Source: an uncultured delta proteobacterium (GTDB taxonomy: Bacteria; Myxococcota_A; Polyangia; Polyangiales; Polyangiaceae). Taken from it: DNA of 64,000 nucleotides. The position numbers and the translations under genes were made by a program. The notes beneath the pieces are model-generated. The model made no database searches, had not been told where the DNA came from, and was given only the letters and a program-made list of their open reading frames with translations. The stretch covers positions 1,344,001 through 1,408,000 of the forward strand of contig CAWJCS010000005.1 in NCBI GenBank assembly GCA_963841435.1. The letters run 5' to 3'. Within the stretch, counting starts at the first letter, position 1. The number at the start of each line of letters is the position of its first letter. Positions 1 through 30,767 of the stretch are shown one piece after another.

Positions 1-296
1 ATGCGCGCCGCGATGAGGTCGTGACCATCTTTGAAAATGGCGGCGCCAACGTCAACACGACTGCCGATCGAGCGTTTGACCGGATAGCGCCCGCCATCGA
101 CGATTGGCGTCACCTGCTCGATTACGACGTGAGGCGGCTCGGAGGCAGGGCTCATTCGCCCGCTCTTAACACGAACCGGTGCTCTCGCGCGCCCCCGTGC
201 CGGGCCCGTGCCCGGAGCACGCCGCCACGCCGCCAACACGGCACCGTCACTTTCCCCGCTTCGCTCGGCAGTTACGCCGGATCGGCGGGGGGGGTG

Positions 297-2019
297 CTAG
301 GGCGTCACACGGAAACCGTACAGGCGAAGCTTCGTGGGCGGCGGGATCGTGGATCGGGGCATGTCGCGGTTCGAGGGCAACGTTTCCCAACGGAGCATGT
401 ACAGGATGGTCGGATCGGGGCTCGCGCCGTCGTCCTTGCGAAAGCGCACCTCCATCTCGGCCGTGCTCGACTCCACTCTCGCAAGCTCGGAAGGGTACGG
501 CACCGGCTGTGGGATCGTCGCCTCGGCGGCGAGCGTCGTCGGATTCAAGCGAAACGCGCCGAGCCCACCGTACTGCGAGTGGTAAAAGTTCTGCGTGAGC
601 GTGCCGCCGGGCTGCACTTCGACCGGCTCCACCTCGATTTCGAACACGAGCGTGCCGCCACCACCGAAGTCCCAGCGGTAATCCCACTGCGACGTCTGAT
701 GAACGACCCAGCTGCCGTTCTCGAAGCGCGCGTTGTAAAGCTGCGTCTTCCCGTTCTGATCGTACTTGTGATACGCGATGATCGGTCGGTTCTGCGTGTC
801 GAAGCCGACCTTCGTGTTGTTGTTGATCATGCCGCCGCCGGCCGGCACGGGGTCGACGACCTCGCTCGTGCCGAGCGTGATGGGCAACGTCAGCGCCTGG
901 CCGCTCGCCTTCGTCCAGCTCAGGAGATCGGCGCTGCGCGCGTACGAGAGGTCGTGGTTCGTGGCGGCGTCGGGCGTGTCTCGCCACACCCACACGAGGT
1001 GAAAGAGGTCGTCGGGTCCCTTGATGGGGCCGACGGGGTAGGCGTTGCGCTGCCCCTCGCCGTCGGTGAGCGGTGTGCCGAGCAGGCGTGACCAGGTTTT
1101 CGTGCCCGTCGAGTACTCGTTGAAGATGTGGTTACCGTTGCCGCTCGAGCCGTCACGGTAGATGAACACGAGCTTGCCGCCGGGACCCCGGAAGAACTGC
1201 GGGTACGTGCAGCTCTGCTCGTTTTGCCCCGTCATCGAGAGCTGCTGGAAGGTGTCGATGTCGAGCGGCGCCGAGGTGCGGAAGTAAATGAGAGGCGAGC
1301 TGTGCATGTTGCCCGCCACGTGGATGTAGCCGTCGTCGTCGATGGCCATCACGATGTCGTTGTGGCTGTCCCAGCCGACCGAGGTCGGCAGCCGCACGAG
1401 CTTCCAGGTGGACGATCCGAGCGTCCGATCGGCAACCGTGAGCGCACGGTTCGCATCGTAGAACGCCGCGAACTGGCGATCCTGCCGCGTGATGAGGAAG
1501 AAGCCGACGGGATGCCCGGACCAGAACGTCGGTGATGTCGAGAGCTTCGGCGATCACCGAAGGCGTGCCGCCGCCACCACCCGCACCTGCGCCCGCATCA
1601 CCGCCCGCTCCCGCACCGGCGGAACCGCTCGCGCCGCCGCTCGCTCCGGAAGCGCCCGCACCCGCGCTGCCCGCCTGGCCGGCACCGGCCGCCTCGGTGC
1701 CGGCATCGCCGCCGGAACCTGCGACCTCGCCCGCGCTGCCACCCGCGCCCGCACCCGCCGCCGGTGCTCCGGCGCTGCCACCTTCACCGCCACCACTCAC
1801 CCCGGCAGCGGGACCAGCCCCCGCTCCAGCGCTGCCGCCAACGTCTGCGCCGCCCTGGGCTCCCGCAAGCCCCGCGGAGCCCGCCGTGCTCGAGCCGCCC
1901 ATCCCGGATTGGCCCGACGAAGCGGACTCGGACGACTCGCAAGCAAGCAGGGTGCACGCGAGCAAAGTGACCGACAGGCGCCACCGCGGGCCACTAATGC
2001 TGCACATGCCTCGGCTCAA
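297..2019 (-). CDS. BNR-4 repeat (beta-propeller) lipoprotein, putative polysaccharide lyase-like; single-base frameshift near 1525
   Basis: ORF 1153..2019 gives a lipobox (LLAC) and Gly-rich linker. Removing one T at ~1525 (GAC GTTC TGG) joins it to DVWSGHPVGF...WDSHN...HVAGNMH...TYPQF...YRDGSSGNG...WVWRDTPDAATNHDLSYARS in ORF 297..1397. The span is 3n+1. Confidence 0.8.
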
Positions 2020-2083
2020 GGTATCCGATGCCTTCTCACACTGCCAGCGAGGGCCACGATGTGCATGGTATCTTCATGACTCG

Positions 2084-3682
2084 TTGCGCAAGCGTCCGGC
2101 GCCAATCACGACTCGTACAGCGTCGATTATCTCGACGCTGCTATTTTGCTTTGCTTGCGGCAACGGGGGCGGCGAGCCGAGCGGCGTCGCGGGCAGCGCG
2201 GGCACGGTGGGCGGCGCCGCCGGGTCCGGTGGGTCCGGCGTGTCGGGAACGGCGGGCGCTCAGGCGGGCGCCGGTGGAGCAGCGGGCTCGAGCGGTGGCG
2301 TCAGCGGAGGATCGAGCAGCGGCGGCACAGCGGGCACGGCGGCCGGCGGCGATGGCGGCGGACCGGCGGGTGGCGCCGCGGGAGCAATTGGCATGGCGGG
2401 TAGCACGGCAGCGGGCACGGGCGGCGCGGCGGGCACGGGCGGTCAAGCGGGCGCCGCAGGCAACGCCGGAGCCGCCGGCAGCAGTGGCGCAAGTGGCGCA
2501 AGTGGCGCGAGCGGCGCGGCGGGCAGCTCGGGTGCCGGCGCTGGAGGCGCCGGGGGCGTACACGCAGCGGACGCAGCGTTCTGTCTCGCAGAGCTCGACC
2601 GCGCCGCCGACCAGTACGCCGGCTTTCGCACGGCGTACACCGATGCGACCCAAGTGCCACGCTCCGCAAAGAACGGCAGCGTGCGTCGCGTCGCCACGAG
2701 CGACTGGACGAGCGGCTTCCCCGCCGGCAGCTTCTGGCTGCTCTACGAGCACACCGAAGACACGGCGTTCCGCACCGCAGCACAGACTTTCACGGAGGCG
2801 CTCCGGGGAGAGCGCACGCGCACCGACAGCCATGACGTAGGCTTCATGATCAACGACAGCTTCGGCAACGGCTACCGCCTCACGGGCGACGCCGGCTACG
2901 CGAGCGTCGTGCGCGACGCCGCGGCTTCGCTCGCGACGCGCTTCAATGCCACCGTGGGGGCCACGCGCTCGTGGGATTTCGGCAGCTGGAGCTTCCCCGT
3001 GATCATCGACAACATGATGAATCTGGAGCTCCTGTTCCACGCGACGGAGCTCGGCGGCGACGCGAGCTTTCGGCAGATGGCCATCACGCACGCGCTCACC
3101 ACTCGGAAGAACCACTTCCGCGCCGACATGAGCTCCTATCACGTCGTCGACTACGACCCGAGCACGGGCGCGGTCATCAAGAAGCAGACCAACCAGGGCG
3201 TGGCCGACGAGTCCGCGTGGGCTCGCGGCCAGGCGTGGGGCCTCTACGGTTTCACGATGTGCTTTCGCGAGACGGACGACCAGAGCTTCCTCGATCAGGC
3301 CATCGGCATTGCGGACTTTTACACTCAGAGCCCCGCGATGCCGTCCGACGGCGTGCCCTACTTCGACTTCGACACCGCCGACGACGACACGATTCCCGAC
3401 TACCGGGACGCTTCGGCCGGCGCCATCGCGGCGAGCGCGCTCTTCGAGCTCGCCGGCTACGCACCCGCCGAGGCGTCCGAGCGCTACCTCGCGTTCGCCG
3501 TCAAGGCCATCCGCTCCCTCTCGTCAGCGAGCTACCGGGCGGCGCTGGGTCAAAACTCCCATTTTTTGCTGATGCACAGCGTCGGCAACTACCCACAGAA
3601 CGACGAGATCAACGTCGCCATCAACTACGCCGACTACTACTACCTCGAAGCCCTGCTTCGTTGCTCCAAGCTCGGCGGTTGA
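2084..3682 (+). CDS. GH88 unsaturated glucuronyl hydrolase, lipoprotein with Gly-rich linker
   Basis: DWTSGF, HDVGF, IIDNMMNLELL, SAWARGQAWGLYG, RDASAGAI and YADYYYLEAL motifs. TTG start at 2084 chosen ahead of the FAC|G lipobox; start uncertain. Confidence 0.9.
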   Translation: MRKRPAPITTRTASIISTLLFCFACGNGGGEPSGVAGSAGTVGGAAGSGGSGVSGTAGAQAGAGGAAGSSGGVSGGSSSGGTAGTAAGGDGGGPAGGAAGAIGMAGSTAAGTGGAAGTGGQAGAAGNAGAAGSSGASGASGASGAAGSSGAGAGGAGGVHAADAAFCLAELDRAADQYAGFRTAYTDATQVPRSAKNGSVRRVATSDWTSGFPAGSFWLLYEHTEDTAFRTAAQTFTEALRGERTRTDSHDVGFMINDSFGNGYRLTGDAGYASVVRDAAASLATRFNATVGATRSWDFGSWSFPVIIDNMMNLELLFHATELGGDASFRQMAITHALTTRKNHFRADMSSYHVVDYDPSTGAVIKKQTNQGVADESAWARGQAWGLYGFTMCFRETDDQSFLDQAIGIADFYTQSPAMPSDGVPYFDFDTADDDTIPDYRDASAGAIAASALFELAGYAPAEASERYLAFAVKAIRSLSSASYRAALGQNSHFLLMHSVGNYPQNDEINVAINYADYYYLEALLRCSKLGG

Positions 3683-4361: not shown

Positions 4362-6971
4362 TTGAGCGCCAGCGCCGCGCCGCAGCGGGAGCGGGTGCTC
4401 CTCGTCGACGACGAGCCTCAGGTGCTGGTCGCGCTCGAGGATCTGTTGTCGGACGAGTTCGTCGTCATGACTTGCGGCTCGGGGGAGCGCGCCCTCGAGA
4501 TCCTGGAAACGGACGGCAACGTCGCCGTCGTCGTCAGCGACCAGCGCATGCCTCGCATGCCGGGCGACGCGCTACTCGCGGAGGTGGGACGGCGCACGAC
4601 GGCGTCCCGCATCCTCGTCACCGGCTTCGCCGATCTCACCGCCGTGATCCGGGCCGTGAACAGCGGCCACCTGTTCGCCTACATCGCCAAGCCCTGGGAG
4701 CCGAAGGACCTGAAGCTCAAGGTCCAGCTCGCCGCACACCATTTCCGGCTGAGCCAGGAGCTCGCCCACGAGCGGCGACTCTTGAACGACCTTCTCACGA
4801 GCACCCCTGACGCCATCTTCTTCAAGGACGCCGAGCTACGCTTTCTGCGAGCCAATCGGGCGTTCGCCGAGCTCCTCGACTCCGCGCCCGAAAAGCTCGT
4901 CGGCAGGCGCCTGGAAGATCTCGCCCCCGACCCCGCCGAGGCGGCGCGCGTCGCGGCCGAGGAACGGCGCATCGTCGCAACGGGCGAGCCCCTGCTCGAC
5001 GTCGTGCGCAGGCACGAGCGGCAGGGCGTCACACGCTACCTTTCGGAGAGCAAGGCCCCGATTCGAGAAGCGGACGGCCGCGTCGTCGGCATCGTGGGGA
5101 TTGCCCGCGACGTGACCCAGCGTGTCGCTCAAGAGGCGAGCATCGCCCGGCTCACTCGCGTGCGAGGCATCCTGAGCGGTGTCAACGCCGCCATCCTGCG
5201 CGCCTCCGACGGCACCGCGCTACTCCGCGAATGCTGTCGCGTCGCAATCGAGCACGGCGAGCTCTCGCTCGCCGGAGTCAGCGTGGTGGACCCGAGCGGG
5301 CAGCTCGAGGCCCTGGCGATGGAGCCGGCTGGCGTGCGTGTTCCCACGCGGGTGCGCAGGTTCCTCCTGAACGGCGCGGTTCATCCCACGCTCGCCGGCG
5401 TGATCGACCGGGGGCAGCCCGTGGTGCTCGACGCGGTCCCTGACGCGCCCTTGGAGCCGGGCTCCGAGCCGCCGCCTCGGCGCCGCGAGATTCGTTCGCT
5501 CGCGCTCGTCCCCATCGCGCGGCCCGGCGAGCATCCCGTACTGCTCTGGCTCTGTTCGCCCAAGCCCGATCAATTCGACGCCGAGGAGCTGATGCTGCTC
5601 GGCGAAACGGCCGACAACGTGTCGTTCGCGCTTGCGAGCATGGGCCGCAGCAGGCGCCTCGACTTCCTCGCGTATTTCGACGAGACGACACGCCTGCCGA
5701 ACCGTCAGCTCCTGTTCGATCGCACGGGGCAACAGCTCGGAGCGGCGAGCCTCGACGCGCCGCTCGCACTCGTGGTGGTCAACGTCGCTCGCATGCGCCA
5801 GGTCAACGAGTCGTTCGGCCGGCGAGGCGGCGACGACCTCTTGCTGCAGATCGCCCAGCGCATCGAGCCCCTCGTGGGCAAGAAGGGCACGGCTGCTCGC
5901 CTCGACGGCAACGTGTTCGCGCTACTCGTGCCGGCCGTGGACGCCGAGGCGGCGGCGGCGTCGTTCGCCGAGCACGAAGTTCTCGCGGCGTTTCGACAGC
6001 CCTTCGTGGTAAACGACGCCGAGGTGCGCGTTGCCGTGCGCCTCGGCATCGCCCTCGCGCCCGGCGACGGTGACAGTGCCGAGCTCCTGGTCTCCAACGC
6101 CGAGGCCGCGCTCAAGAAGGCGAAGGCGACCGGGCAGCCCTACCTCTTTTACTCGCCGGACATGAACGCACGCGTCGCCGAGCAGCTCGCGCTCGAAACG
6201 AAGCTTCGCCGCGCGGTCGACCACGGGGAGTTCCTGCTTCACTACCAGCCGAAGACCGACCTCACGACGGGGGAGCTCGTGGGTCTGGAAGCGCTCATCC
6301 GCTGGCAGGAGCCCGGCGGGGCGCTCGTCCCTCCCGGCCGCTTCATCCCGGTGCTCGAGGAGACCGGGCTCATCCGGGAGGTCGGCCGCTGGGTCCTCGA
6401 GCGGGCCGCGCTGCAGTACCACGAGTGGTCGCGCGCCGGGCGCTCGCCGCCGCGTATCGCGGTCAACGTCTCCGCGCTCCAGCTCGCCGCGCGCGACTTC
6501 GCGGGAAACGTGGAGCGCGTGTTGCGCCACTATCCGGACGGTAGCGGCATCGACCTCGAGATCACCGAAAGCGTGTTCCTCGACGACCTGGCGGGCAGCA
6601 TAAAGAAGCTCGAGGGGGCGCGGCGCCAAGGGCTGCGCGTCGCGATCGACGACTTCGGAACGGGTTACTCCTGCCTTTCCTATCTGGGGCGCCTGCCCAT
6701 CGACACCATCAAGATCGATCGCTCGTTCGTGGTGCGCCTGAGCACGGATCCGCAGGCGACCTCGATCGTCGATACCATCATCTCGCTGGCGCACGCGTTC
6801 GGGCTCGAGGTCGTTGCCGAAGGTGTCGAGACCGCGGAGCAGGCGCAACTCCTCCGCAAGCTCGGCTGCGACCAGGCGCAGGGCTACCTGTTTGCACGGC
6901 CCGAGCCTGCCGCGGCGACCGAAAAGCGACTCGGCTCGCGCTTCGATCTCGACGCCCTGCTTCGGAACTGA
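4362..6971 (+). CDS. REC-PAS-GAF-GGDEF(degenerate)-EAL protein, probable c-di-GMP phosphodiesterase
   Basis: REC (LLVDDE, SDQRMP, KPW), PAS (IFFKD...GIARDVT), GAF, GGDEF site reading LDGNVF, and intact EAL motifs ([28 protein letters not shown]). Confidence 0.93.
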
Positions 6972-7037
6972 GTACCTCACCCGACGAGCGCAGCGACGCT
7001 GTCGCGCGACTCGAAATATCCGTGAGGAGTTAGAAAT

Positions 7038-7065
7038 AGGAGTCTGGACACTGGTCCGGACTCCT
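7038..7065. promoter_or_regulatory. inverted repeat in the intergenic region upstream of the PilZ-GNAT operon
   Basis: AGGAGTCTGGAC-ACTG-GTCCGGACTCCT: 12-bp arms with one mismatch (a G-U pair in RNA). Confidence 0.45.
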
Positions 7066-7252
7066 GGCCATTTGGCCAGTTCACCGTCCCGTCACACAAC
7101 GTCACAGGCCTGGGTCGTCCTGACCCAGCCACCTTTGCACTTACTTTATCCCACAGTGTGCCGTCTTTTGATCTGACAGCCCGCCACCGGGTACCCTCCG
7201 GCCAAAATCACCTCAGCTCGTTCACCGTCCGCTCCCCCCATCGTGCCCTCGA

Positions 7253-9334
7253 ATGGCCGCCTCAGACCGCCGCTTCACTTACCGACTGGACCTCCTCGAG
7301 GATCAGGTCCGCGTTTCGTCGCCGAGCTCGACGCGCATCGTCGTTGCAGATCTGAGCGCCAGCGGAAGCGGGCTCATCGTCAACCCCGACGATCTCGACA
7401 GGGTGACCGCGGAGCCCGCCACTTTCGACATCGGCGGCGGGCAGTCGTTCGTGGTGCGGCTCGCCCCCGTGCGCGTCTCCCAGCTCGACCGGCAACTTCG
7501 GGTCGGTGCGAGATTCCAGGATCTGCCTCTGTCTGGCATGCGAGTCCTGTCGGAATTCTTGATACGCGAGTTTCTGGAAGAGACCCGAGCGCTCGGCCGA
7601 CTACTGGAGGACCCGCGCACCATCACGACCACGAGCCCCGTCTCCATTCGTCGGCACCTCAAGCGTTGCCTCGTCGTCGAGCGCCGTCCGCTCCGCGTGT
7701 ACGACCACGGGACGGTGCTGCCCCTCACCGTGCGCGTCGAGCGTATCGTGGATCTGGGGGGGCGACCGATGCTCGAGGTCGTGATCGGCGCACCGGGTCT
7801 CGAGATCGGCCGGGAGTACACGTTCGCCGTCGCTCGCCCTGGCGCCGTAACGCACTTCCGTGCTCGCCCAGAGCTCCGTTCCGAGAACACGTTCCTCGTC
7901 CCACTTCCCGATCAGCTCTGCCATGGAGGGTTCCGCGACTCGGTCCGAACGTCCTTGGACGGCGGCGGTGACGCGTTCGTGCGCTTTGAGCATCCGCGCT
8001 TGCCCGGGGTGCCCATCGGGCGCCCTCTTTTGGATCTTTCGGCCCGAGGCTTCGCTTTCGCCTCGGACCCCGAGAGCGACCTGCTGTTCCCTGGCGACCG
8101 GCTAGCTCGCGTCGAGCTGTTCTTGGGCGGAGAAACCTATCAGGTCATCGGGGCCATCCGCAGCATCGCGCCGCACCGGCGCTCGGACGTGTACACGTGC
8201 GGTGTCGAGGTGCTCGAGTTCGCCGACGTCGGTCAGGAAGTCCGCTTCCAGACCGCGGTCTTCCAGCGCACTCATCCGCGAGCCGTGATGGCGGAACCGC
8301 CGCAAGCCGCTGGCATGGCCTGGGACGTGCTGCAAGCCTCCGGCTATGTGGAGCTCTGGACCCGCGCCGGAGCGCGGCAGCGACTACAAGGCGAGTACGC
8401 GAGAAGCTGGACCGGCGCGACGCAAACCACCGGGCGACTGATGCTGGTGGAGAGCGGAGGCAAGGCCGTGGGGACCGTCGCCGCGAGCCTGCTCTACCCT
8501 AAAACTTGGCTCGTGCACCAGCTCGGTGTCGACCGGCGCGAAAGCACGGGACCCGCCCAGGTCTTGAGCCTCGCGCACGAGCTGTACTCGGGCGTGCTCT
8601 ACCTCTTCCAGAACCAGCAAGAGGCGGACTACTTCGCGATCTTCGCGGAGCGCGACCGCCGCTGGAGCCAGACCCTCTACGATGGCTTCGTCGCCGAGTA
8701 CCCGGACCGTAGCGCGTTCGCCTACGACCAGAATCGCGTTTTTCGCTGTGACGTGACGACGCCCGTCAGCCGGCAGCTGGGAGCCGAGCCAGGAATCACG
8801 GTCGTACGTGCCGACGCCGCTCGCCTGTTGCTCGCTTCGGAAGCCCTGCGGGCGTCTTCGTCGCCCCTTCTCTGCGATGCCATGGCCTACGGCGCCGGCG
8901 AGATCGGGCTCGAGGACTTCGCCCGCACGTGCCGTGAGCTCGGCTGTGAGCGAGAACGACACGTCTACGTCGCGCTCGAAAACGACACGCCGATAGCTGC
9001 GCTGATCGCCGAGAGCGGAGGTGAAGGGGTGAACATCTTCGGACTGATGAACCACTGCACGATCGCGAGCCTTGGCACGGGTCCCGTCAGCGCGAACGCG
9101 AAGAGGGCGCTCCTGCGCGAAGCGATGGACCACTTCTTGCGACAGAACCGGCACCAGTTCCTCTTCTTCGACGAGACCGACGCCGACGTCCCTGCCGTCG
9201 AGCTACTCGGGTTCGAATACGTGTCGGAAGGCATGCGCTTCATCGCAAGCAAGCGGGTAGTGCCTGCATGGCTGAGCTATCTGGAAGCCGCCTTCACGGT
9301 CCGCGCCGCGTCGCAGGTTGGCCGTGATGGCTGA
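7253..9334 (+). CDS. tandem PilZ-domain protein with C-terminal GNAT-like (putative N-acyl amino acid synthase-like) region
   Basis: Two RxxxR + DxSxxG pairs: RFTYR/DLSASG and RDSVR/DLSARG. The C-terminal alpha/beta region (LMLVESGGKAVGTV...WLVHQLGV; VYVALENDTPIAAL...ELLGFEY) looks like tandem GNAT folds. Confidence 0.7.
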   Translation: MAASDRRFTYRLDLLEDQVRVSSPSSTRIVVADLSASGSGLIVNPDDLDRVTAEPATFDIGGGQSFVVRLAPVRVSQLDRQLRVGARFQDLPLSGMRVLSEFLIREFLEETRALGRLLEDPRTITTTSPVSIRRHLKRCLVVERRPLRVYDHGTVLPLTVRVERIVDLGGRPMLEVVIGAPGLEIGREYTFAVARPGAVTHFRARPELRSENTFLVPLPDQLCHGGFRDSVRTSLDGGGDAFVRFEHPRLPGVPIGRPLLDLSARGFAFASDPESDLLFPGDRLARVELFLGGETYQVIGAIRSIAPHRRSDVYTCGVEVLEFADVGQEVRFQTAVFQRTHPRAVMAEPPQAAGMAWDVLQASGYVELWTRAGARQRLQGEYARSWTGATQTTGRLMLVESGGKAVGTVAASLLYPKTWLVHQLGVDRRESTGPAQVLSLAHELYSGVLYLFQNQQEADYFAIFAERDRRWSQTLYDGFVAEYPDRSAFAYDQNRVFRCDVTTPVSRQLGAEPGITVVRADAARLLLASEALRASSSPLLCDAMAYGAGEIGLEDFARTCRELGCERERHVYVALENDTPIAALIAESGGEGVNIFGLMNHCTIASLGTGPVSANAKRALLREAMDHFLRQNRHQFLFFDETDADVPAVELLGFEYVSEGMRFIASKRVVPAWLSYLEAAFTVRAASQVGRDG

Positions 9335-11630
9335 GCGGGCGGAGTGGCCGGATCTCGCTCCGCTCCTCGAAGGCCTCGACGACAACAGCGCGGAATTCGA
9401 GCCGCTCCGTTTTTTCTGCGACCAAGCAGCGGACGCGGAAGCACTGAAACGGCTGCTACTGGGCAAGGGGCGGCCGCTTTTTCGTCGCGACGACCTCGAG
9501 AGCCAGGTCCGCGAGCTTGTCCGCTCCCGTACACCGACCCTCACGGACGCCTCCAAGCTGGACGCGGCGGCGCGGGAGTTCATGCTCGAGCGCGGTGAGG
9601 CACGTTACGGCGTGTGGGTCTACTACCCATGGCGCCGTCTGCTCGTGCGTGTCCTGCCGCCGGAGGAGTTCGCGGAGCTTCGAACGACGCGCAACCGCTT
9701 CAAGATCACTCGAGAAGAGCAGGCGCGTCTCGCCGAATGCACGCTGGGCCTGGTGGGGCTCTCTGCGGGTCACGCCATCGCGACGGGCCTGGCGCTCGAG
9801 CGGATAGGCACGCGCATTCGACTCGCGGACTTCGACTCCATGGAGCTTTCCAACACCAATCGCGTCGCGTGCGGCATCAGCGTGCTCGGGATGAACAAGA
9901 CGCTGGTGGCGGCGCGACAGCTCTATGAAATCGACCCGTTCCTCTCCTTGTCGGTATTTCCCGAGGGGATCACCGACGACAACCTCGTAACGTTCCTCGA
10001 GGGCGGCGGTAAGGTCGATCTTCTGATCGAAGAGTGCGACGATCTGGAGCAGAAGGTCCGGCTCCGCGAGGCGGCGCGCGCCCGGCGGATCCCGGTGCTC
10101 ATGGAGACCAACGACCGAGGGCTTTTGGACGTGGAGCGCTTCGACTTGGAGCCGTCGCGCCCCGTGTTTCACGGGTTGCTCGGAGGCACGCGGGCAGCTG
10201 AGCTGAAAGGCCTGGGCGTGGCGGAAAAGATCACCCACTCGCTACGCATCGTGGGCAGCGAGGTCTCGCCACGCCTCGGGGCGTCGCTCGTCGAGATCGG
10301 ACGGACGATCGCGGCTTGGCCGCAGCTGGGATCAGGGAACATGCTCGGCGGCGCCGTCACGACGCACGCGGCCCGCCGGATTCTACTGGGCCAACCGCTT
10401 TCATCGGGGCGCTACCGAGTGGACCTCGACGAGCTCCTGGATGGATCCGGCCGCGTCGAGCTCGGACGCGAAGTGGGCCAACCGCCAGAACCTGCGGGCA
10501 CCGAAGCGCAACCCTCTGTGCCCGATCCACCGCCGCCTGCGGCGCGCGGGGCACCGCCGTCGCGCGCCGAGATCGAGTGGCTGGTGAGCCACGCGGCGCT
10601 CGCGCCGTCCGGCGGCAACCAGCAGCCGTGGCGCTTCGTCTGGCGCAAGGACGCGCGACTCGACGGCTACCTCGACCGCACCCGCGCCGGAGACCTGCTC
10701 GACTATGCGTGCTCGGCCAGCTACCTCGCGCTGGGAGCCGCCGCGGAGAACGCCAGCATCGCCGCCAGTGTCCTCGGGCGTGACGCGAGCGTCAACCTCT
10801 TTCCAGACGCTTCCGAACCCGACCTGGTGTTTCGTCTGAAGCTCGGGCAAGCCTCCGGCACCGTGACGCCTAGTCCGCTCCACGCTTGCCTTGCGATGCG
10901 CACCACCAACCGCCGCCCCGGCGACGGTCGATCGCTCTCCGCGGACCACACGCGGCGCCTCGAGCAGGCCGCACGCGCACGCGATGCCGAGGTTTCGTTG
11001 GTATGCGACGCGCCCACCCTGTCACGGCTCGGCGGATTGCTCGGCGCCGTCGATCGGTTTCGCCTCCTCAACGAGGGCCTGTACGAGGCCATGATGGCAG
11101 AGCTGCGCTGGGATCTCGACTCTGTGCTCACGACACGCGACGGCATCGACGTGGCGACCCTGGAGCTCGATGCGCTCGGGCTCGCCGCATTGCGACTCCT
11201 GACCGACGCGCGCACCGCGCGGTTCCTTCACTTTCTAGATCTCGGTTCCGGGCTCGAACGGCCGACACAGCGCCTCGTCGAGTCGGCGGCCGCCGTGGGG
11301 CTCGTCACCGTGAACGGGGTCGGCCCGCGCGCCTACGCGCAGGCCGGTCGGGCCTTCGAGCACGTCTGGCTGGTCGCGACCGAGCTAGGTCTCGGCGTGC
11401 AACCGATGACGGTCGCTCCCTACCTGTTCGCCAGGCTCACGCGAGGCGAGGGGGAAGGGCTTTCCCCTCGTGATGTCGAGCACCTCTGGACCCTCGAGCG
11501 GCGCTTCCGCGAGTTCTTTCCGACGCCGGATGGACGCGCCGAAGCGATGTTGTTTAGGATCGCGCACGCGCCTGCCCCACGAGCACGCGCCTTGCGGCGC
11601 CCCCTCGACGACATCCTGAGCGAGAGCTGA
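9327..11630 (+). CDS. ThiF-nitroreductase di-domain enzyme (Rv1355c/OxzB oxazolone synthetase-like)
   Basis: WVYYPWR, RNRFKITREEQ, VGLSAG, RLADFD...SNTNR, EECDD, DVERFD and WPQL in the ThiF part; APSGGNQQPWRF, RTTNR and LGVQPM in the nitroreductase part. Overlaps the upstream stop codon. Confidence 0.9.
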   Translation: MAERAEWPDLAPLLEGLDDNSAEFEPLRFFCDQAADAEALKRLLLGKGRPLFRRDDLESQVRELVRSRTPTLTDASKLDAAAREFMLERGEARYGVWVYYPWRRLLVRVLPPEEFAELRTTRNRFKITREEQARLAECTLGLVGLSAGHAIATGLALERIGTRIRLADFDSMELSNTNRVACGISVLGMNKTLVAARQLYEIDPFLSLSVFPEGITDDNLVTFLEGGGKVDLLIEECDDLEQKVRLREAARARRIPVLMETNDRGLLDVERFDLEPSRPVFHGLLGGTRAAELKGLGVAEKITHSLRIVGSEVSPRLGASLVEIGRTIAAWPQLGSGNMLGGAVTTHAARRILLGQPLSSGRYRVDLDELLDGSGRVELGREVGQPPEPAGTEAQPSVPDPPPPAARGAPPSRAEIEWLVSHAALAPSGGNQQPWRFVWRKDARLDGYLDRTRAGDLLDYACSASYLALGAAAENASIAASVLGRDASVNLFPDASEPDLVFRLKLGQASGTVTPSPLHACLAMRTTNRRPGDGRSLSADHTRRLEQAARARDAEVSLVCDAPTLSRLGGLLGAVDRFRLLNEGLYEAMMAELRWDLDSVLTTRDGIDVATLELDALGLAALRLLTDARTARFLHFLDLGSGLERPTQRLVESAAAVGLVTVNGVGPRAYAQAGRAFEHVWLVATELGLGVQPMTVAPYLFARLTRGEGEGLSPRDVEHLWTLERRFREFFPTPDGRAEAMLFRIAHAPAPRARALRRPLDDILSES

Positions 11631-11635
11631 AACCG

Positions 11636-14279
11636 ATGGAGCTCATCGGGAGCCTACTCATCGTTTACGCAGGCGTGCTCTCGATCAACGTCGGGCTTTC
11701 CGCACTGCTGTGGGCGCGCGATCGCACGCCTCTCAATCGGAGCCTGCTGATCCTGTGGGCTTCCGAGGTGCTCGCGTTTCTCGCCCAAGGCGTGGCGCAA
11801 GGCAACACGCTCGCAATCGTCTACGGGTTTTCAGCAACCTTCGTAGGCACCCTCGCGGCGGCATTTCTCTTGGCGCGCCTCGCCGGGCTCACCGTGCCGT
11901 GGCGCGCCCACACCGCATTCTTCGCGTTGAGCTGCTTGGCGAGCGCGGGCGCATACGCGTTGGGTGGGTCGTTCTGGATGGTCGCGCTGCCGGTGTGCGT
12001 GGCCGTCGCCATGCCGCAGCTCCACGCCGCGCTCCGGGCACTTCAGACGAAAGTGCTGACCACGACCGGACGTGCACTGGCCGTGACGTGCCTGGCACTT
12101 TCCGCCCACAACGTGGACTTCGCCTTCCTCAGGAATCGCCCCGAGTTCGCGGTTTTCGGCTTCATCATCGCCATTCTTCTGGCCTTTGCCCTCAGCACCA
12201 CGGCGCCAGCCGTCGTGCTGGAGCGCGTGGCCGCGGAGCGTGCCCGGGTGGAGGAGCTCGAGCGCTTCAAGTCCAAGTTTTTCGCCAACATCACGCACGA
12301 GCTTAAGACACCGCTCACGATGGTTCTCGCCCCGATCGAGCTTCTGCTCGACGGCGAGATCGGAGTGATCACGCCGCAGCAGCGCAGCACGCTGCTCGCC
12401 ATGTCGCGCAGCGGCGTCAAGCTCCTCAAGCTGATCGGGGACCTCCTCGATCTATCGAAGCTCGAGGAATCGCGTTTGCGTCTGCGCGTGGAGGAGCACG
12501 ACCTCGTCGTCTACCTGCGTGGGCTGCTCGAACAGACCACACCGCTCGCAGAGCGCAAGCGCCTCGGGCTGACCTTCGTTGCAAACTGCGAGGAAGCGCG
12601 CGTGTTCTGCGATCTCGATCGACTGGAGCGCGTGTTCGTCAACCTGCTTTCGAATGCGTTCAAGTTCACGCCCATGGGTGGATCCGTGATCGTGCGCGTC
12701 CGCGACGATGGCAACGCCATCGTGGCCGATGTGCACGACACCGGTCGCGGCTTTGCCCCGCGGCTGTCCGAACGCTTGTTCGAGCGATTCTACCAGGTCG
12801 ACGACGACACCCACAGTCGAGGAGGTGCCGGTATCGGGCTCGCGCTCGCCCGCGAACTCGTCGAGCTGCACGGGGGCAGGATCTGGGCCGACAGCGTGCC
12901 CGGAGAAGGGGCCACGTTCCACGTTAGGCTGCTAAAAGGCCGGGAGCATTTCGACCAGGCGGTGCTCGATCGACGCGAGCGCCGGACCGACCAGCAACGC
13001 GGCCAGCGCGAGAGCGATGTGGGGCTCTCCGGCTGGGATGTCGGATTCGAGGACCGGCATCGTTTCATCGACCTCGACCATGCCACCGAGAAGCGTGTCG
13101 TCCAGCGCGACCTCGACGAGCACCGGCGCGCCCACACGGTGCTCGTCGTCGAGGACACCCCTGACGTCGTGCGCGTGATCCACCTTGCCCTGCACCAGCA
13201 CTTCCGGATCTACAGCGCTCCCGATGGCGCCAAGGGCTTCGATCTCGCCGTCGAGCGCCGACCCACGCTCATCATCACCGATCTCGGCATGCCCATCGTC
13301 AACGGTCTCGAGCTGACGCGCAAGCTGCGCGCGGACCCGAGGACGCGCCACACGCCGATCGTCATGCTGACGGCGCGCACCGACCTCGACGACCGGGTCC
13401 TCGGCCTCGACACGGGGGTCAACGCGTACCTCACCAAGCCCTTCGCCCCGCGGGAGCTGCTCTCGACGGTCCGTTCGCTCTTGAGCACTCAGGAGCACAC
13501 GGCAGAGCTTCTGCTCAGTCAGCAAACCACGTCGCTCGAATCGATCGCCGGTGGCTTGGCTCACGAGATCAAGAACCCGCTCAATTACATCAAGAACGCC
13601 GTCGCAAGCATCCAGCGCGACGTCCAGGGCTCCGTGGAAAAGCTCAAGGCAGGAAAGCCGCTGTCCGACGCCGAGCAGGCCGAGCTCGGCAAGGTCGCCG
13701 GTCGGCTCGGTCGCATGGCGGACACGGCGCAGTCCGGCGTGAAGCGCATCACCGGCACGGTTGACCTCATGCTGCGCTATGCGCGCGAGGGCTACACGCG
13801 CGTGCACCAGCCGTACGACGTGTACGCCGCCATCAGCGACGTGCTCGGCGTCGTCGTCCCGGCGACGGGGTCGCGCGCACGGATCGAAACCACGCTCCAG
13901 GACGACGGCACGATCGAGTGCGTGCCTGACGAGCTGAATCAGATCGCGACCAACCTGATCCAGAACGCACTCGAGGCGGTACCCGCCGAGAACGGCGTCG
14001 TCGCGATCGGGGGGCGCGTTCAACGGCGGCGACCTCGTGCTCACGTTCCGCGACAATGGAGTCGGCATGTCGCCCGAGGTGCAGAGCCAGATCTTCACGG
14101 CGTTTTTCACCACCAAGGACGTCGGCCGCGGCCTCGGCATGGGCCTCACCATCACGCGGCGCTGCGTCGTAGCGCTCGGCGGAGCGATCAGCGTGCAGAG
14201 CCAGCTCGGCGAGGGGACCGAGTTCACCGTGCGTTTGCCCCGCAAACCGCGGCTCGGCGTGCCCGCGCCGGCCCCCTGA
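11636..14279 (+). CDS. membrane hybrid histidine kinase (multi-TM input, HisKA-HATPase-REC-HisKA-HATPase); single-base frameshift near 14020
   Basis: About 6-7 hydrophobic helices, then ITHELKTPL, NLLSNAFKFT, GAGIGL, REC (TDLGMP, TKPF) and a second H-box AHEIKNPL. The final RDNGVG...GLGMGL continues in ORF 14037..14279. Confidence 0.9.
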
Positions 14280-14364
14280 CACGCCTCGCGGGTGCTGCCC
14301 CGGCGCGGGGCAGGTGCTCGAGTAGCGTCGATTTTTGGCGCTCATCGCGTAGAATGGTTGAGCT

Positions 14365-15450
14365 GTGGGCCTTCTGTCCGATGGCGACCCGCATTCGGTG
14401 GGCTCGTCAACCGATTTTGCGAGCGGTGAACGCGCACCAGGGCTCCGCCCTGTTCCGCGCAACCGCGCCACTTCGCAGCGCGCCCTGGGGCCTTTTGCGA
14501 CGACGCTGCTCGTGGGTTCGATCGCCACGGCGGCCTGCTCTTTGATCACGCCGCTCGACTTCACGGGCGGCCTGGGGGGGACGAGCGGCAGCGCGGGCAC
14601 TGGCGCGACCGAAGGCGGCGCCCTGGGCGAGGGCGGCGAAGGCGAGGGCGCAACCGGCGGTGGCGGTACGCCCGCGCTCGGCGGCAACGGGGGGGCGACC
14701 GCGGGGGGGCGTGGCGGCGGTGCCGGAGAGGCCGGGCGCGGTGGTGACGGCGCGACGGGCGGCGACGGCGGTTCGAGCGCGACGGGCGGCAGCAGCGGCG
14801 ACGGCGGCAACGGGGGCACGAGCGGCGACGGCGGCTCGTCCGGTGCCGGCAATGGGGGCACGAGCGGCGACGGCGGCTCGTCCGGTGCCGGCAATGGGGG
14901 TGTGGCGGGCGGTGGCAATGCCGGCATGTCCGGCGGCGGCAACGCGGGCAGCTCGGGCGCCGGCGACGGTGGCACCGCTGGCGCCCCCCCCACCTCGTGC
15001 TCGATGGTCGACGCGAACGCCAAGGCGTTTGGAGGTCACTGCTACCTGCTCGTGACCACACCCACGACCTGGCCGCAGGCACGCACGGCGTGCCCGGCCC
15101 GCTATGCAGGGGGTCACCTCGTGACGATCACGTCCGAGTCAGAGCAAATGTTCGTCTGGCAGACGGTCGTGCTCGGCGGCACCGAACCTTGGCTCGGATG
15201 CACCGACGGCCTCACGGACATGCAAGCCGGGGACGGCTCCATCTTCGAGTGGATCACGGGTGAGGACATCCAGCAATATCACGGCTGGGCGGGCGGCGAG
15301 CCGAACAACTTCATGAAGACCTGCCCGTCGGGCACGGGCACCTGCTACGAGCACTGCGGCTTTTTGCAGTCTTTGACGCAAGGCTACTGGAACGACGAAG
15401 TCTGCAGCGCGAACAAAGCGTCTATTTGCGAGTGGGACACCGGCGGCTAG
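14365..15450 (+). CDS. C-type lectin domain lipoprotein with Gly-rich linker
   Basis: TAAC lipobox, HCY, WPQARTAC, HLVTITSESEQ, WLG, EPNN, and C...WNDEVC...ICE. Start uncertain. Confidence 0.85.
   Translation: MGLLSDGDPHSVGSSTDFASGERAPGLRPVPRNRATSQRALGPFATTLLVGSIATAACSLITPLDFTGGLGGTSGSAGTGATEGGALGEGGEGEGATGGGGTPALGGNGGATAGGRGGGAGEAGRGGDGATGGDGGSSATGGSSGDGGNGGTSGDGGSSGAGNGGTSGDGGSSGAGNGGVAGGGNAGMSGGGNAGSSGAGDGGTAGAPPTSCSMVDANAKAFGGHCYLLVTTPTTWPQARTACPARYAGGHLVTITSESEQMFVWQTVVLGGTEPWLGCTDGLTDMQAGDGSIFEWITGEDIQQYHGWAGGEPNNFMKTCPSGTGTCYEHCGFLQSLTQGYWNDEVCSANKASICEWDTGG
14806..14889 (+). repeat. 42-bp tandem coding repeat (GNGGTSGDGGSSGA x2)
   Basis: Two units at 14806-14847 and 14848-14889 differing by one base. 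Confidence 0.9.
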
Positions 15451-15677: not shown

Positions 15678-15815
15678 ATGTTCCTCTGAACAAATACTCA
15701 TCCCGATTTCCCTTGGCGCAAGCGGCCGAATGCGGCAAGAGCAGTGACGACTCATCTGGGAGGGGCTGGGTGGTCGAGGATGAGTGTTCGTTTACAAGCC
15801 ACAAAAGGAAACACA

Positions 15816-17138
15816 ATGTCTTCGCGACCCACACACACCGCCAAGCTGGGGCAGCTGGCGGTCGCAGCCGTCGTCCTCGCGGGCTGCGGCGCAAGCCCCG
15901 GCGAGCCTTTCGATTCCGCCGAAGAGCCCCTGACGCTCACCAACGAGACGAAGCTCTTCATTCCCAAGCCGAACCCCGATGCCGTCAAGCAGATCGCCAG
16001 GTTGAAGGCACGCCACCGTAGGGTCGAGGCCGCCCGCATCAATCACATGATCGAAACGCCGCAGGCGGTGTGGCTAACCAACGGCTCGCGTGGGGACGTG
16101 GTCGCTCAAACGCGAGAGGTCGTCAGGCTTGCCGACGACAAGGGCCGGGTGCCCGTGCTCGTGGCCTACAACATCCCGTTCCGCGATTGCTCGCAGTTCT
16201 CCGCCGGCGGCGCCACCACCAAGGAAGAATACCATGCGTGGGTTGACGGCATTGCCGACGGCATCGGGCGTAAGGACGCCATCGTGATTCTCGAGCCGGA
16301 CAGCCTCGGCATCATTCCCTGGTACAACCCGCTCGCCGATCGCGACGACTGGCTGCCCGATCCCAACGTGCTCGAGTGGTGCCAACCCACCGATGCCGAT
16401 CCTGCGACCGCGGCTCAGGACCGCTTCGACATGCTCAAGGACGCGGTCGAGACGCTGAAGAGCCTCCCCAACACGAAGGTTTACCTCGACGGCACGCACA
16501 CCGCATGGCTCGCCGCGGGTGACGCGGCCGATCGTCTGCTCCAGGCCGGCGTGACGGAGGCCGACGGCTTCTTCCTGAATGCCTCGAACTATCAGGACGA
16601 CCCGCGTCTCGAGAAGTACGGCGCGTGGGTTGCCAAGTGCATCTGGTTCGCAGATCCGACCTCCGGCTCCTGGGGCGCTGGCCACGCCGAGTGGTGCAAC
16701 AGCCAGTACTACCCGGCAACGTTCGACGACCTGTCGACGTGGGCTCTCACCGACCAGTGGTACACCGACAACGTCGAGAGCCAGACGTGGGTGCCGTATC
16801 CGGGCGACGAAGGCATCAGCCACTTCGTCATCGATACGAGCCGCAACGGCGTCGGGCCTTGGCAGGCGACGCCCGAGCAGCTCGCGCTCGGTGACGTTCA
16901 GGATTGGTGCAACCCGCCGGGCCGTGGCCTCGGCAAGCGCCCCACCACCAACACGGGCAACCCGCTCATCGACGCGTACCTGTGGATCAAGCTGCCGGGC
17001 GAGTCCGACGGGCAGTGCAACCGCTGGGACCCCGTCGGTTCGCCGGATCCGGTGCGCAACACGATGGACCCGGCTGCGGGCGCCTGGTTCCCCCAGATGG
17101 CGCTCGAGCTGACGGCCAACGCCAATCCGCCGTTCTGA
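15816..17138 (+). CDS. GH6 cellulase (endoglucanase-type), lipoprotein
   Basis: PQAVW, YNIPFRDCSQFSAGG, ILEPDSL, VYLDG, GFFLNASNY, FVIDTSRNG, WCNPPGRGLG, WIKLPGESDGQC and AGAWF. LAGC lipobox; AAGGAA RBS. Confidence 0.95.
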   Translation: MSSRPTHTAKLGQLAVAAVVLAGCGASPGEPFDSAEEPLTLTNETKLFIPKPNPDAVKQIARLKARHRRVEAARINHMIETPQAVWLTNGSRGDVVAQTREVVRLADDKGRVPVLVAYNIPFRDCSQFSAGGATTKEEYHAWVDGIADGIGRKDAIVILEPDSLGIIPWYNPLADRDDWLPDPNVLEWCQPTDADPATAAQDRFDMLKDAVETLKSLPNTKVYLDGTHTAWLAAGDAADRLLQAGVTEADGFFLNASNYQDDPRLEKYGAWVAKCIWFADPTSGSWGAGHAEWCNSQYYPATFDDLSTWALTDQWYTDNVESQTWVPYPGDEGISHFVIDTSRNGVGPWQATPEQLALGDVQDWCNPPGRGLGKRPTTNTGNPLIDAYLWIKLPGESDGQCNRWDPVGSPDPVRNTMDPAAGAWFPQMALELTANANPPF

Positions 17139-21204: not shown

Positions 21205-21372
21205 CATTAGCTCGATCGTGAGCGCCTCTCGCTCCTGGTAGAGCTCGGGGAACGAGAACTTCGCCTTCGACGCCTCGAGCGTCACGAGCGACTGCGCGAG
21301 CGCACCGGTGCGAAGCTCGGCGCGTGCTTTCTCGAGCAGGCGCACCTCTTCTTCGAGCTCGCTTTGGCGCAC
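21205..21372 (-). pseudogene. fragment resembling the C-terminal TPR-like domain of myxobacterial anti-sigma-type membrane proteins
   Basis: ELEEEVRLLEKARAELRTG...L..LE...KF....L..EREALTIE pattern, with no proper start or N-terminal domain. Confidence 0.45.
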
Positions 21373-21582
21373 GCGTGCCGGAGCATCCCAAACGGGGAAC
21401 GCGGCGACCGAGCTTTCCGGGCGCGAGGGAGCGGGCGCCCTCTGCTCGGCGGGGCTCCTAGCGCCGCGAATCTTGGGATCCTTGGCGCCTTGCCGCCGGG
21501 CCCGGCACGGTCGGTGGCCCGGTCCGCCAGGCGCACGAAATGCAATCTTCGAGAAAACCGGTTAAGTTGCGCGCCGCACCCC

Positions 21583-30493: not shown

Positions 30494-30767
30494 CGCGACG
30501 ACGCGAGGCGCGCTCGGCGACGCGCCCCATTTCCATGGGCTCGACCCTACCCGGCGGCGCGGAGCGGCTGAGGAGCGCGGTTATATAACCCGCGGGGAGC
30601 AACGGCGGGGTGAAGGGCACGCCACATCTGCGCTCTTCGGAAGATGCGGGTTGCGCTCCACCATCTCGTTTTGATTGGATGACGTGCCGAAACATGACCG
30701 GTGCCACCATCGGGACCGGAGACTCTGCCGAACGCGGATGGGGGCCGAACCGAAACGAGATGACCCC

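Follow-up and report, generated by a model that had tools for sequence, protein, structure and literature searches.

Here, we show that a 64,000-nucleotide stretch of an uncultured delta proteobacterium of the Polyangiaceae (GenBank assembly GCA_963841435.1, contig CAWJCS010000005.1, positions 1,344,001 to 1,408,000; about 67% G+C; hereafter the window) carries, at 7253-14279, three adjacent genes that probably form a signalling module, one that is conserved across Myxococcota. They encode a protein with PilZ domains and a doubled GNAT region (hereafter PilZ-GNAT), a ThiF-nitroreductase of the TrzS/Rv1355c family, and a membrane sensor kinase in which a receiver (REC) lies between two histidine kinase (HK) modules (HK-REC-HK). 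That these three genes are grouped not only in the window but also in many related bacteria is suggestive of a signalling function of oxazolone lipids. In what we consider the best reading (probability of about 0.5), the module is a synthase of N-acyl amino acids or oxazolones that responds to cyclic di-GMP (c-di-GMP) and is coupled to a dedicated kinase. The features of the module are as follows.

7253-9334, + strand: PilZ-PilZN-PilZ-tandem GNAT gene, 693 aa (AlphaFold2 model, Foldseek, VIA, family alignments A1 and A4)
7253-7582, + strand: N-terminal PilZ domain, residues 1-110 (motifs in the translation, kept in alignment A1)
7607-8281, + strand: YcgR/MrkH-like PilZN and PilZ pair, residues 119-343 (VIA, motifs)
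8276-9265, + strand: tandem (double) GNAT region, residues 342-671 (VIA, Foldseek)
9327-11630, + strand: TrzS/Rv1355c-family ThiF-nitroreductase gene (NCBIfam NF005901, Pfam)
11636-14279, + strand: HK-REC-HK sensor kinase gene, frame-broken (Pfam, frame analysis, L006 orthologue)
14313-14339, + strand: terminator-like hairpin and T-run (sequence scan)

The four plus-strand open reading frames (ORFs) of the locus, i.e., these three and a REC-EAL gene upstream of them, were found with the positions and spacings given in a first-pass annotation made from the letters of the window. With the in-frame ATG at 9327 as its start (TTG at 9318 is a possible alternative), the ThiF-nitroreductase ORF overlaps the PilZ-GNAT stop (9334) by 8 nt, and a 5-nt gap separates its own end at 11630 from the kinase start at 11636; on sequence grounds, this overlap and gap indicate coupling of the three genes. 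The hairpin and T-run, 34 nt past the corrected kinase stop, are the likely end of the operon; terminator-like sites across the region are no commoner than in shuffles, and for this one only its position is suggestive. A sigma-70 promoter scan of 6800-14700 returned no sites, and myxobacterial promoters may deviate from that consensus.

The conservation of the module was examined in 401 genomes of the phylum, the identical set for both queries, with PilZ-GNAT scored as present by profile A1 at E up to 1e-10 and the Rv1355c family above the NF005901 cut-off. We found PilZ-GNAT in 26 genomes, a TrzS-like enzyme in 22, and both in 16, compared with about 1.4 expected if the two were independent, which kin among the genomes are not. 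In 14 of these 16 genomes, the two genes share a contig at a distance of no more than 6 kb, and in the remaining two they are on separate short contigs. Apart from the window's own genome, a hybrid kinase adjoins the PilZ-GNAT gene in 17 of 25 genomes, with varying gene order, a ThiF-nitroreductase in 13, and both together in 11; the neighbour is lost at a contig end in two genomes, and six have no such kinase. The order PilZ-GNAT, ThiF-nitroreductase, kinase is shared by the window with loci L006 and L016, while most others run PilZ-GNAT, kinase, ThiF-nitroreductase. The neighbour kinases have a HisKA-HATPase-REC core, usually with a second HATPase; one variant ends in HD_5, and one is cut at the start of its 7TM region by a contig end. 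For 18 of the 18 neighbour kinases tested, the best match in the window's own genome, among its many kinases, is the window kinase, and they therefore look orthologous. A kinase not conserved beside the enzymes had been named in the first-pass annotation as a ground for refutation; by these counts the kinase is conserved there, and the proposal is not refuted on this point. Because it recurs in many genomes, the arrangement is far beyond chance.

The gene between PilZ-GNAT and kinase is replaced in some relatives. Four closer homologues of 30-35% identity (L003, L004, L038, L040) have a B12-binding radical-SAM protein in the middle-gene place and retain the kinase, and on short metagenome contigs the gene after PilZ-GNAT encodes a fatty-acid desaturase (L013, L017) or a Cupin_8 protein (L015). 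Some further loci are recorded here as separate observations. In L056 (G370) and L053 (G325), PilZ-GNAT is paired with a Ser/Thr kinase-AAA_16 (STAND-like) protein of about 1270 aa and with a Haem_oxygenas_2 iron redox enzyme or an FAD_binding_4 oxidase, which replace the histidine kinase and the ThiF-nitroreductase. In L046 (G209), the ThiF-nitroreductase has immediately 3' of it a fused HMG-CoA reductase/polyprenyl synthetase ORF (1-2384, minus strand, 794 aa, truncated by the locus end). Outside Myxococcota, a Chloroflexia metagenome-assembled genome holds a PilZ-GNAT homologue (L005, 9914-12752) with a ThiF gene after it at the contig end; this homologue looks frameshifted or misassembled because its profile matches are spread over three different ORFs or frames.

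The placement of the middle enzyme in the oxazolone-synthetase family, as proposed by the first-pass annotation, is borne out by the NCBIfam equivalog cut-off. The product of 9327-11630 scored 731.6 bits against NF005901 ('Rv1355c family', cut-off 476), covering model positions 7-718 of 722, and Pfam finds both ThiF and Nitroreductase in it. It shares 36-38% identity with annotated Rv1355c-family proteins of Mycolicibacterium, Rhodococcus and Mycobacterium plasmids and is single-copy in its own 7.78-Mb genome. The ThiF and nitroreductase motifs are invariant over nine myxobacterial and three actinobacterial members; E236-C237-D238 and an APSGGNxQPW block (numbering of the window protein) stand among the many invariant Asp, Arg and Gly columns shared with the three actinobacterial members; in Mtb TrzS, the conserved nucleotide- and flavin-site residues are D217 and R540. 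By family assignment, then, the product is a TrzS/Rv1355c-family oxazolone synthetase. TrzS is Rv1355c and, together with the acyltransferase TrzA (Rv1356c), encoded by the adjacent gene, makes N-acyl tryptazolones from N-acyl-Trp, as described in PMC12856293. The same report points out the c-di-GMP genes that flank trzAS, with the role of the lipids being unknown to its authors. We think there is a good, if not strong, chance that the enzyme pair in the window also makes an N-acyl amino acid and its oxazolone.

The first gene of the module belongs to a family that annotation has largely passed over. In the product of 7253-9334, Pfam detects only a weak PilZ (residues 258-337), and NCBIfam models run against the protein and 11 relatives assigned no family. 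A word-indexed protein search returned 32 relatives, every one unnamed or 'hypothetical', and the same type of search with the broad alignment A2 reached only the close subfamily (35 proteins), while an exhaustive profile search retrieved 1112 clusters (50% identity) at E up to 1e-30. As judged by these searches, the PilZ-double-GNAT family is large and uncharacterised. Longer, fused forms were searched for and none was found, which is weak evidence, and a Pfam scan of the eight longest representatives (853-924 aa) gave no additional domain.

An AlphaFold2 model of PilZ-GNAT built from 27 sequences (pLDDT 84.1, pTM 0.78) and the family alignments confirm the tandem PilZ arrangement read from the sequence in the first-pass annotation, with two PilZ domains that each carry the RxxxR and DxSxxG c-di-GMP motifs. 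The N-terminal domain (residues 1-110) has R7xxxR11 and D33xS35xxG38 and is detected by Pfam in relatives (L039, 7.9e-13; L005, 2.7e-11), and the second canonical PilZ has R228xxxR232 and D261xS263xxG266. R228 and R232 are invariant across the 29 diverse family members of alignment A4, 25 of which keep at least one strict RxxxR/DxSxxG motif pair. In structural comparison (VIA), residues 119-343 match MrkH (5ejl) with Z 17.4 and a root-mean-square deviation (rmsd) of 2.8 over 213 residues, with YcgR (Z 15.7), PP4397 and MotI as further PilZN and PilZ matches, and residues 225-342 match the Alg44 PilZ (Z 14.3, rmsd 2.1 over 104 residues). Taken together, motifs and model suggest that c-di-GMP likely binds the PilZ domains; that it also gates the activity of the protein has, in our estimate, an even chance. 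As a separate observation, residues 119-343 of model m96e02a309825 deviate from c-di-GMP-bound MrkH by an rmsd of 2.8-4.0, versus 11.6-11.7 from apo MrkH.

The GNAT-like nature of the C-terminus, which the first-pass annotation had guessed at, is now supported by fold comparison, with a tandem GNAT recognised by both Foldseek (E 1e-10) and VIA (Z 14-16.5). For residues 342-671, the best VIA match is HisAT/NAT16 (9emd), with Z 16.3-16.5 over 275 residues, including its N-myristoyl-histidine complex, followed by VipF (Z 14.5), a clavulanate tandem GNAT (Z 14.0), GlmA and N-myristoyltransferases (Z about 13). Foldseek also finds VipF (E 9.5e-11), and Pfam Acetyltransf_1 is sub-threshold in this region (E 0.007). 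Thus, a GNAT-type fold is encoded next to a ThiF/oxidase gene, as in TrzA/TyzA/OxzA/FeeM-type synthases.

For the third gene, Pfam and the translation give HisKA-HATPase-REC followed by a second H-box and HATPase. Of the multi-membrane-helix hybrid kinase that had been described in the first-pass annotation, the membrane helices and the hybrid receiver stand, but the protein is not of the plain hybrid type, being an HK-REC-HK protein with a second kinase module. Its N-terminus (198 residues) has six to seven hydrophobic helices with very short loops, according to hydropathy, and motifs shared with L006 and L016. The H-box, the receiver Asp and Lys, and the second H-box are present, and a frameshift precedes the G1 and G2 boxes of the second ATPase. 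The coordinates 11636-14279 likewise hold, but not as one continuous reading frame: the stop at 14277-14279 is out of frame with the start at 11636. The slip lies near 14010-14023, with a surplus base near 14019-14020, and the ORF that is open throughout (11636-14545) ends in a nonsense tail. Against the intact L006 orthologue (884 aa, metagenome contig), residues 3-797 align in one frame and 793-878 in the next. A soil-metagenome contig (151 nt, depth 2, 95-99% alike) has one base fewer at 14020, by which the frame would be restored. The break stems from an assembly error or from a mutation that the strain acquired recently, and a single low-depth contig is not enough to tell which.

If the middle enzyme acts as its family suggests, its substrate has to come from an acyltransferase. 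A search of the window's own genome (95% complete) with a TrzA-like protein and PF13444 gave no match. Among six TrzS-positive genomes that do not have PilZ-GNAT, at least three loci have a small FeeM or GNAT gene instead: L070 carries a FeeM-family gene (9.3e-14) and a multi-membrane-helix kinase adjoining the ThiF-nitroreductase, L069 and L071 have a small GNAT gene (Acetyltransf_1), and in L067 and L069 a kinase lies directly upstream. This complementary pattern is the strongest indirect argument for PilZ-GNAT as the N-acyltransferase of the pathway. The kinases at the FeeM-type loci are not orthologous to the window kinase, and the pattern also shows repeated recruitment of kinases to genes for oxazolone synthetases. 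We noticed, in addition, that the TrzS-family genes of L070 (7905-11994), L067 and L069, loci from one family of the phylum (f37), adjoin a FeeM or small GNAT gene and a non-hybrid histidine kinase with multiple membrane helices, and that a STAS protein is encoded nearby in L067 and L068.

Two further genes of the window bear on how the module might be connected to c-di-GMP turnover and to a phosphorelay.

4362-6971, + strand: REC-PAS-GAF-GGDEF(degenerate)-EAL gene (Pfam)
30675-31895, + strand: orphan REC-HATPase gene, 406 aa (Pfam REC and HATPase_c; tblastn from other loci)

Pfam detects EAL (9.8e-74), GGDEF (1.3e-28), PAS_4, REC and GAF_2 in the 4362-6971 product. It does not have a GG[DE]EF motif, while the EAL, DDFGTG, KID and EGVE motifs are intact, and it is therefore predicted to be a receiver-controlled c-di-GMP phosphodiesterase. 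The gene does adjoin the module, as the first-pass annotation stated, but a 281-nt spacer separates it from the PilZ gene, and because of this spacer the EAL gene is probably transcribed separately. Its position beside the module is unlikely to be due to chance, given that the own genome yields only 14 GGDEF and 11 EAL ORF hits in 7.8 Mb. A phmmer search for GGDEF/EAL ORFs in 38 related loci (540 kb) found none, and the same queries recovered both actinobacterial controls. The REC-EAL gene is thus a neighbour of the module and no conserved part of it, and it is probably in this lineage alone that the phosphodiesterase reduces c-di-GMP locally.

What many other loci do have is a flanking REC-HATPase gene of about 380 aa. 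For 13 of 15 such flanking REC-kinases, the best tblastn match in the window's own genome falls at 30729-31883, within the orphan ORF 30675-31895 that lies 16 kb downstream of the module, with the REC of the EAL protein in 4th to 47th place. On the strength of these matches, the 30675-31895 product, and not the phosphodiesterase REC, is the conserved receiver partner, and it is a probable phosphorelay partner of the kinase. The feedback loop proposed in the first-pass annotation, in which the kinase signals to the REC of the phosphodiesterase, is therefore without comparative support, as no GGDEF/EAL ORF was found in the 38 related loci and the conserved receiver partner lies elsewhere. As an observation of its own, the kinase of L039 (125-3370, minus strand; G016) is HisKA-HATPase-REC-HD_5, with HD_5 (HD-GYP-type) instead of the second kinase module, a second and independent link of the module to possible c-di-GMP turnover. 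Two other features of the surroundings were spotted: the 281-nt spacer holds, at 7000-7060, an imperfect inverted repeat (AGGAGTCTGGAC...GTCCGGACTCCT) and a TGGCCAnnnTGGCCA palindrome, seen by eye, and polysaccharide-related secreted genes lie around the module, i.e., a C-type lectin domain protein, GH6, GH88-like and GH3 (coordinates, as one set: 14365-15450, 15744-17138, 1532-3682, 21364-23000).

The domain folds, the family of the middle enzyme, the motif conservation and the conserved synteny are established, and beyond these we infer. In the mechanism that we propose, c-di-GMP on the two canonical PilZ domains would set the N-acyltransferase activity of the PilZ-double-GNAT protein, which would acylate an amino acid, most likely an aromatic one by comparison with the substrates of TrzS-type enzymes. 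The co-translated TrzS-like enzyme would then adenylate, cyclise and desaturate the N-acyl amino acid to an N-acyl oxazolone. The co-transcribed HK-REC-HK kinase would be tied to this product, most simply as its membrane-embedded receptor, and would relay the signal further, with the orphan REC-kinase at 30675-31895 as the probable recipient. We hold a functional coupling of the kinase to the enzyme pair to be very probable; that the kinase is the receptor of the product is plausible, though we would put it somewhat below even odds.

Several observations weigh against this reading. Kinship of the C-terminus with TrzA/FeeM-type enzymes, a comparison suggested in the first-pass annotation, did not appear at the sequence level: hhalign of family alignment A1 against a TrzA-like ORF from Nocardia farcinica (taken from a locus with TrzA-like, TrzS-like and then GAF-GGDEF-EAL genes, as in M. 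tuberculosis) gave a probability of 0.2%, i.e., no relation, and the GNAT region gave no signal at E up to 5 with the FeeM and Acetyltransf_5 Pfam models (PF21926, PF13444). FeeM is not among the 50 VIA matches listed, although single GNAT halves may bear it a distant likeness. No canonical acyl-CoA-binding motif was identified in the GNAT region, and a substrate cannot be deduced from a likeness of fold. In this assembly, the kinase gene carries a frameshift, and the kinases at FeeM-type loci are not orthologues of the window kinase. In M. xanthus, the acetyltransferase domain of PixB functions without c-di-GMP binding during growth (PMC8316039), and the oxazolone work reports no signalling phenotype so far (bioRxiv 10.1101/2020.06.11.147165; PMC12856293). 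Furthermore, the PilZ-GNAT/kinase pair is found more often than the PilZ-GNAT/ThiF pair (17/25 versus 13/25), and the kinase is kept where the ThiF-nitroreductase is replaced or absent; because of this, the link between PilZ-GNAT and the kinase could be one of protein to protein, e.g., acetylation of, or binding to, the kinase pathway. This is the main rival explanation, in which PilZ-GNAT is a PixB-like, c-di-GMP-controlled protein (or other non-amino-acid) acetyltransferase or adaptor on the HK-REC-HK pathway and the ThiF-nitroreductase is an accessory enzyme with another substrate. PilZ proteins frequently act via protein contacts, the fold matches include the protein-acting VipF and N-myristoyltransferases, neither TrzA nor FeeM resembles the GNAT region in sequence, and the kinase persists in G016, G170 and G360 without a tailoring enzyme between. 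GNAT substrates are not readable from sequence (PMC8316039). We nevertheless judge this rival unlikely, since the 8-nt overlap couples PilZ-GNAT translationally to a member of an enzyme family for which N-acyl amino acids are the only substrates known, the own genome offers no other candidate supplier of that substrate, FeeM or small GNAT genes stand in where TrzS-positive genomes do not have PilZ-GNAT, the replacements of the ThiF-nitroreductase are small-molecule or lipid tailoring enzymes (desaturase, B12-radical SAM, cupin), and the best fold match acts on a free amino acid.

An N-acyl oxazolone might, alternatively, be made as a stress or membrane lipid or as an antibiotic, with the kinase being an upstream regulator that senses another cue (e.g., envelope state). 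Membrane-only sensors can report membrane state, and the FeeM-type loci are flanked by different, non-orthologous kinases. Consistent with this explanation, antibiotics induce oxazolone production in proteobacteria and the added compound elicited no response (bioRxiv 10.1101/2020.06.11.147165), and tryptazolones are mainly intracellular (PMC12856293). However, no DNA-binding response regulator is a conserved neighbour, the only one being a MerR-REC in L040, and there is therefore no visible output through which the kinase could control transcription of the operon. In addition, changes of gene order have not parted the kinase family from the synthase; such co-inheritance is typical of synthase-receptor pairs such as CqsA/CqsS, and we regard the stress-lipid explanation as improbable on these grounds. 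The same counts bear on chance neighbourhood or mere co-transcription with no common function. Myxobacterial genomes are kinase-rich, so that a kinase beside any gene is not rare; yet 14 of the 16 co-occurring pairs lie within 6 kb, all 18 neighbour kinases are the specific counterpart of the window kinase, and the three genes are joined by an 8-nt overlap and a 5-nt gap, and because of the synteny in particular, chance can be set aside as extremely improbable.

The reading that we prefer, a c-di-GMP-responsive synthase with its dedicated kinase, can be extended to the whole family. Tentatively, PilZ-double-GNAT proteins would be c-di-GMP-gated N-acyl amino acid synthases whose products are tailored by interchangeable enzymes (TrzS-type, B12-radical SAM, desaturase, cupin) and read by a co-inherited membrane HK-REC-HK receptor. 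If true, this would amount to an unrecognised class of lipid-signal synthase/receptor pairs, in which the c-di-GMP level is turned into a lipid cue and a phosphorelay. It would also provide a first receptor and a physiological role for acyl-oxazolones, a role which the TrzAS authors call 'a major unresolved question' (PMC12856293), and hint at what PixB-type acetyltransferases do in myxobacterial development. Should the lipid be the ligand of the kinase, a new route would lead from a nucleotide second messenger to two-component signalling, possibly with a new family of myxobacterial cell-cell signals. In the locus and its relatives, an oxazolone synthetase of the TrzS type, a receptor-acyltransferase for c-di-GMP and a specific membrane kinase are tied together, physically and evolutionarily, and the questions of the acyl-oxazolone role and the PixB substrate become testable in non-pathogenic soil bacteria.

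Among known systems, CqsA/CqsS and LuxM/LuxN place an autoinducer synthase beside a membrane hybrid-kinase receptor. The window resembles them in having a synthase gene, here a predicted one, for a hydrophobic small molecule beside a hybrid kinase, in the sensor being a bundle of membrane helices with short loops, and in the conservation of both together. It differs from them in that the synthase chemistry is unrelated, the window kinase has a second kinase module past the receiver, and c-di-GMP receptor domains are found on the synthase. HisAT/NAT16, VipF and other double GNATs share the fold of residues 342-671 (Z 16.5 to 13), but with only 10-15% identity and no PilZ domains; HisAT transfers an acyl group to the alpha-amino position of a free amino acid (PMC12219266).

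PilZ domains joined to similar enzymes have been described before. Nas354 and Nas343 are metagenomic N-acyl amino acid synthases fused to PilZ, for which c-di-GMP control has been proposed (Thies et al. 2016, PMC4897644). They share with PilZ-GNAT the joining of PilZ to this type of enzyme, the window protein being only a candidate N-acyl amino acid synthase, and differ by their FeeM-type (NAS type I) domain, compared with a double GNAT that gives no FeeM signal; in the portion of that report available to us, no oxazolone synthetase or kinase partner is described (PMC4897644). FeeM+PilZ clusters in the ESM Atlas are weak look-alikes of the window protein (score 0.81-0.83), to be taken as leads only. 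PixB (MXAN_2604) of Myxococcus xanthus has two PilZ domains and a GNAT acetyltransferase domain and binds c-di-GMP in vitro; its acetyltransferase domain is required for motility control and its c-di-GMP binding for development, its substrate is given as unknown, and pixB may share an operon with two genes downstream of it (PMC8316039). Two locus tags further on, MXAN_2606 is described as an 'uncharacterized orphan hybrid HK-RR-HK', and its transposon mutants aggregate poorly, yet are enriched among spores (bioRxiv 10.64898/2026.08.28.747804). PixB and the window protein are alike in the order of two PilZ domains and then GNAT, a likeness drawn from the published description and not from sequence. 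The window protein differs from PixB by an extra PilZN barrel and a doubled GNAT, and while the acetyltransferase domain of PixB is recognised by Pfam (PMC8316039), that of the window protein is not above threshold.

The closest parallel is with TrzA/TrzS (also OxzAB and TyzACB). As in those systems, the middle gene belongs to the TrzS family, in which a ThiF cyclase is fused to a flavin oxidase, the gene directly preceding it in the same orientation encodes an acyltransferase fold, and a c-di-GMP turnover gene is adjacent, comparable to rv1354c/rv1357c and to Nocardia locus L065 (PMC12856293). Unlike them, the window has a 693-aa PilZ-PilZN-PilZ-double-GNAT acyltransferase in place of a TrzA-like protein of about 250 aa, with no sequence kinship between the two, includes a dedicated HK-REC-HK kinase in the operon, and belongs to another phylum, TrzAS being found in mycolic-acid bacteria. 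The first-pass annotation knew of no description of this wiring. This holds for the three-gene module of PilZ-GNAT, TrzS-like enzyme and kinase, of which no published description was found in the literature surveyed (titles, abstract openings and passages of text), but not for its parts, for which partial precedents are in print (PMC4897644, PMC8316039, PMC12856293). Compared with all of these systems, what appears to be new is that the three genes are combined in a conserved way and that the acyltransferase is of the double-GNAT type.

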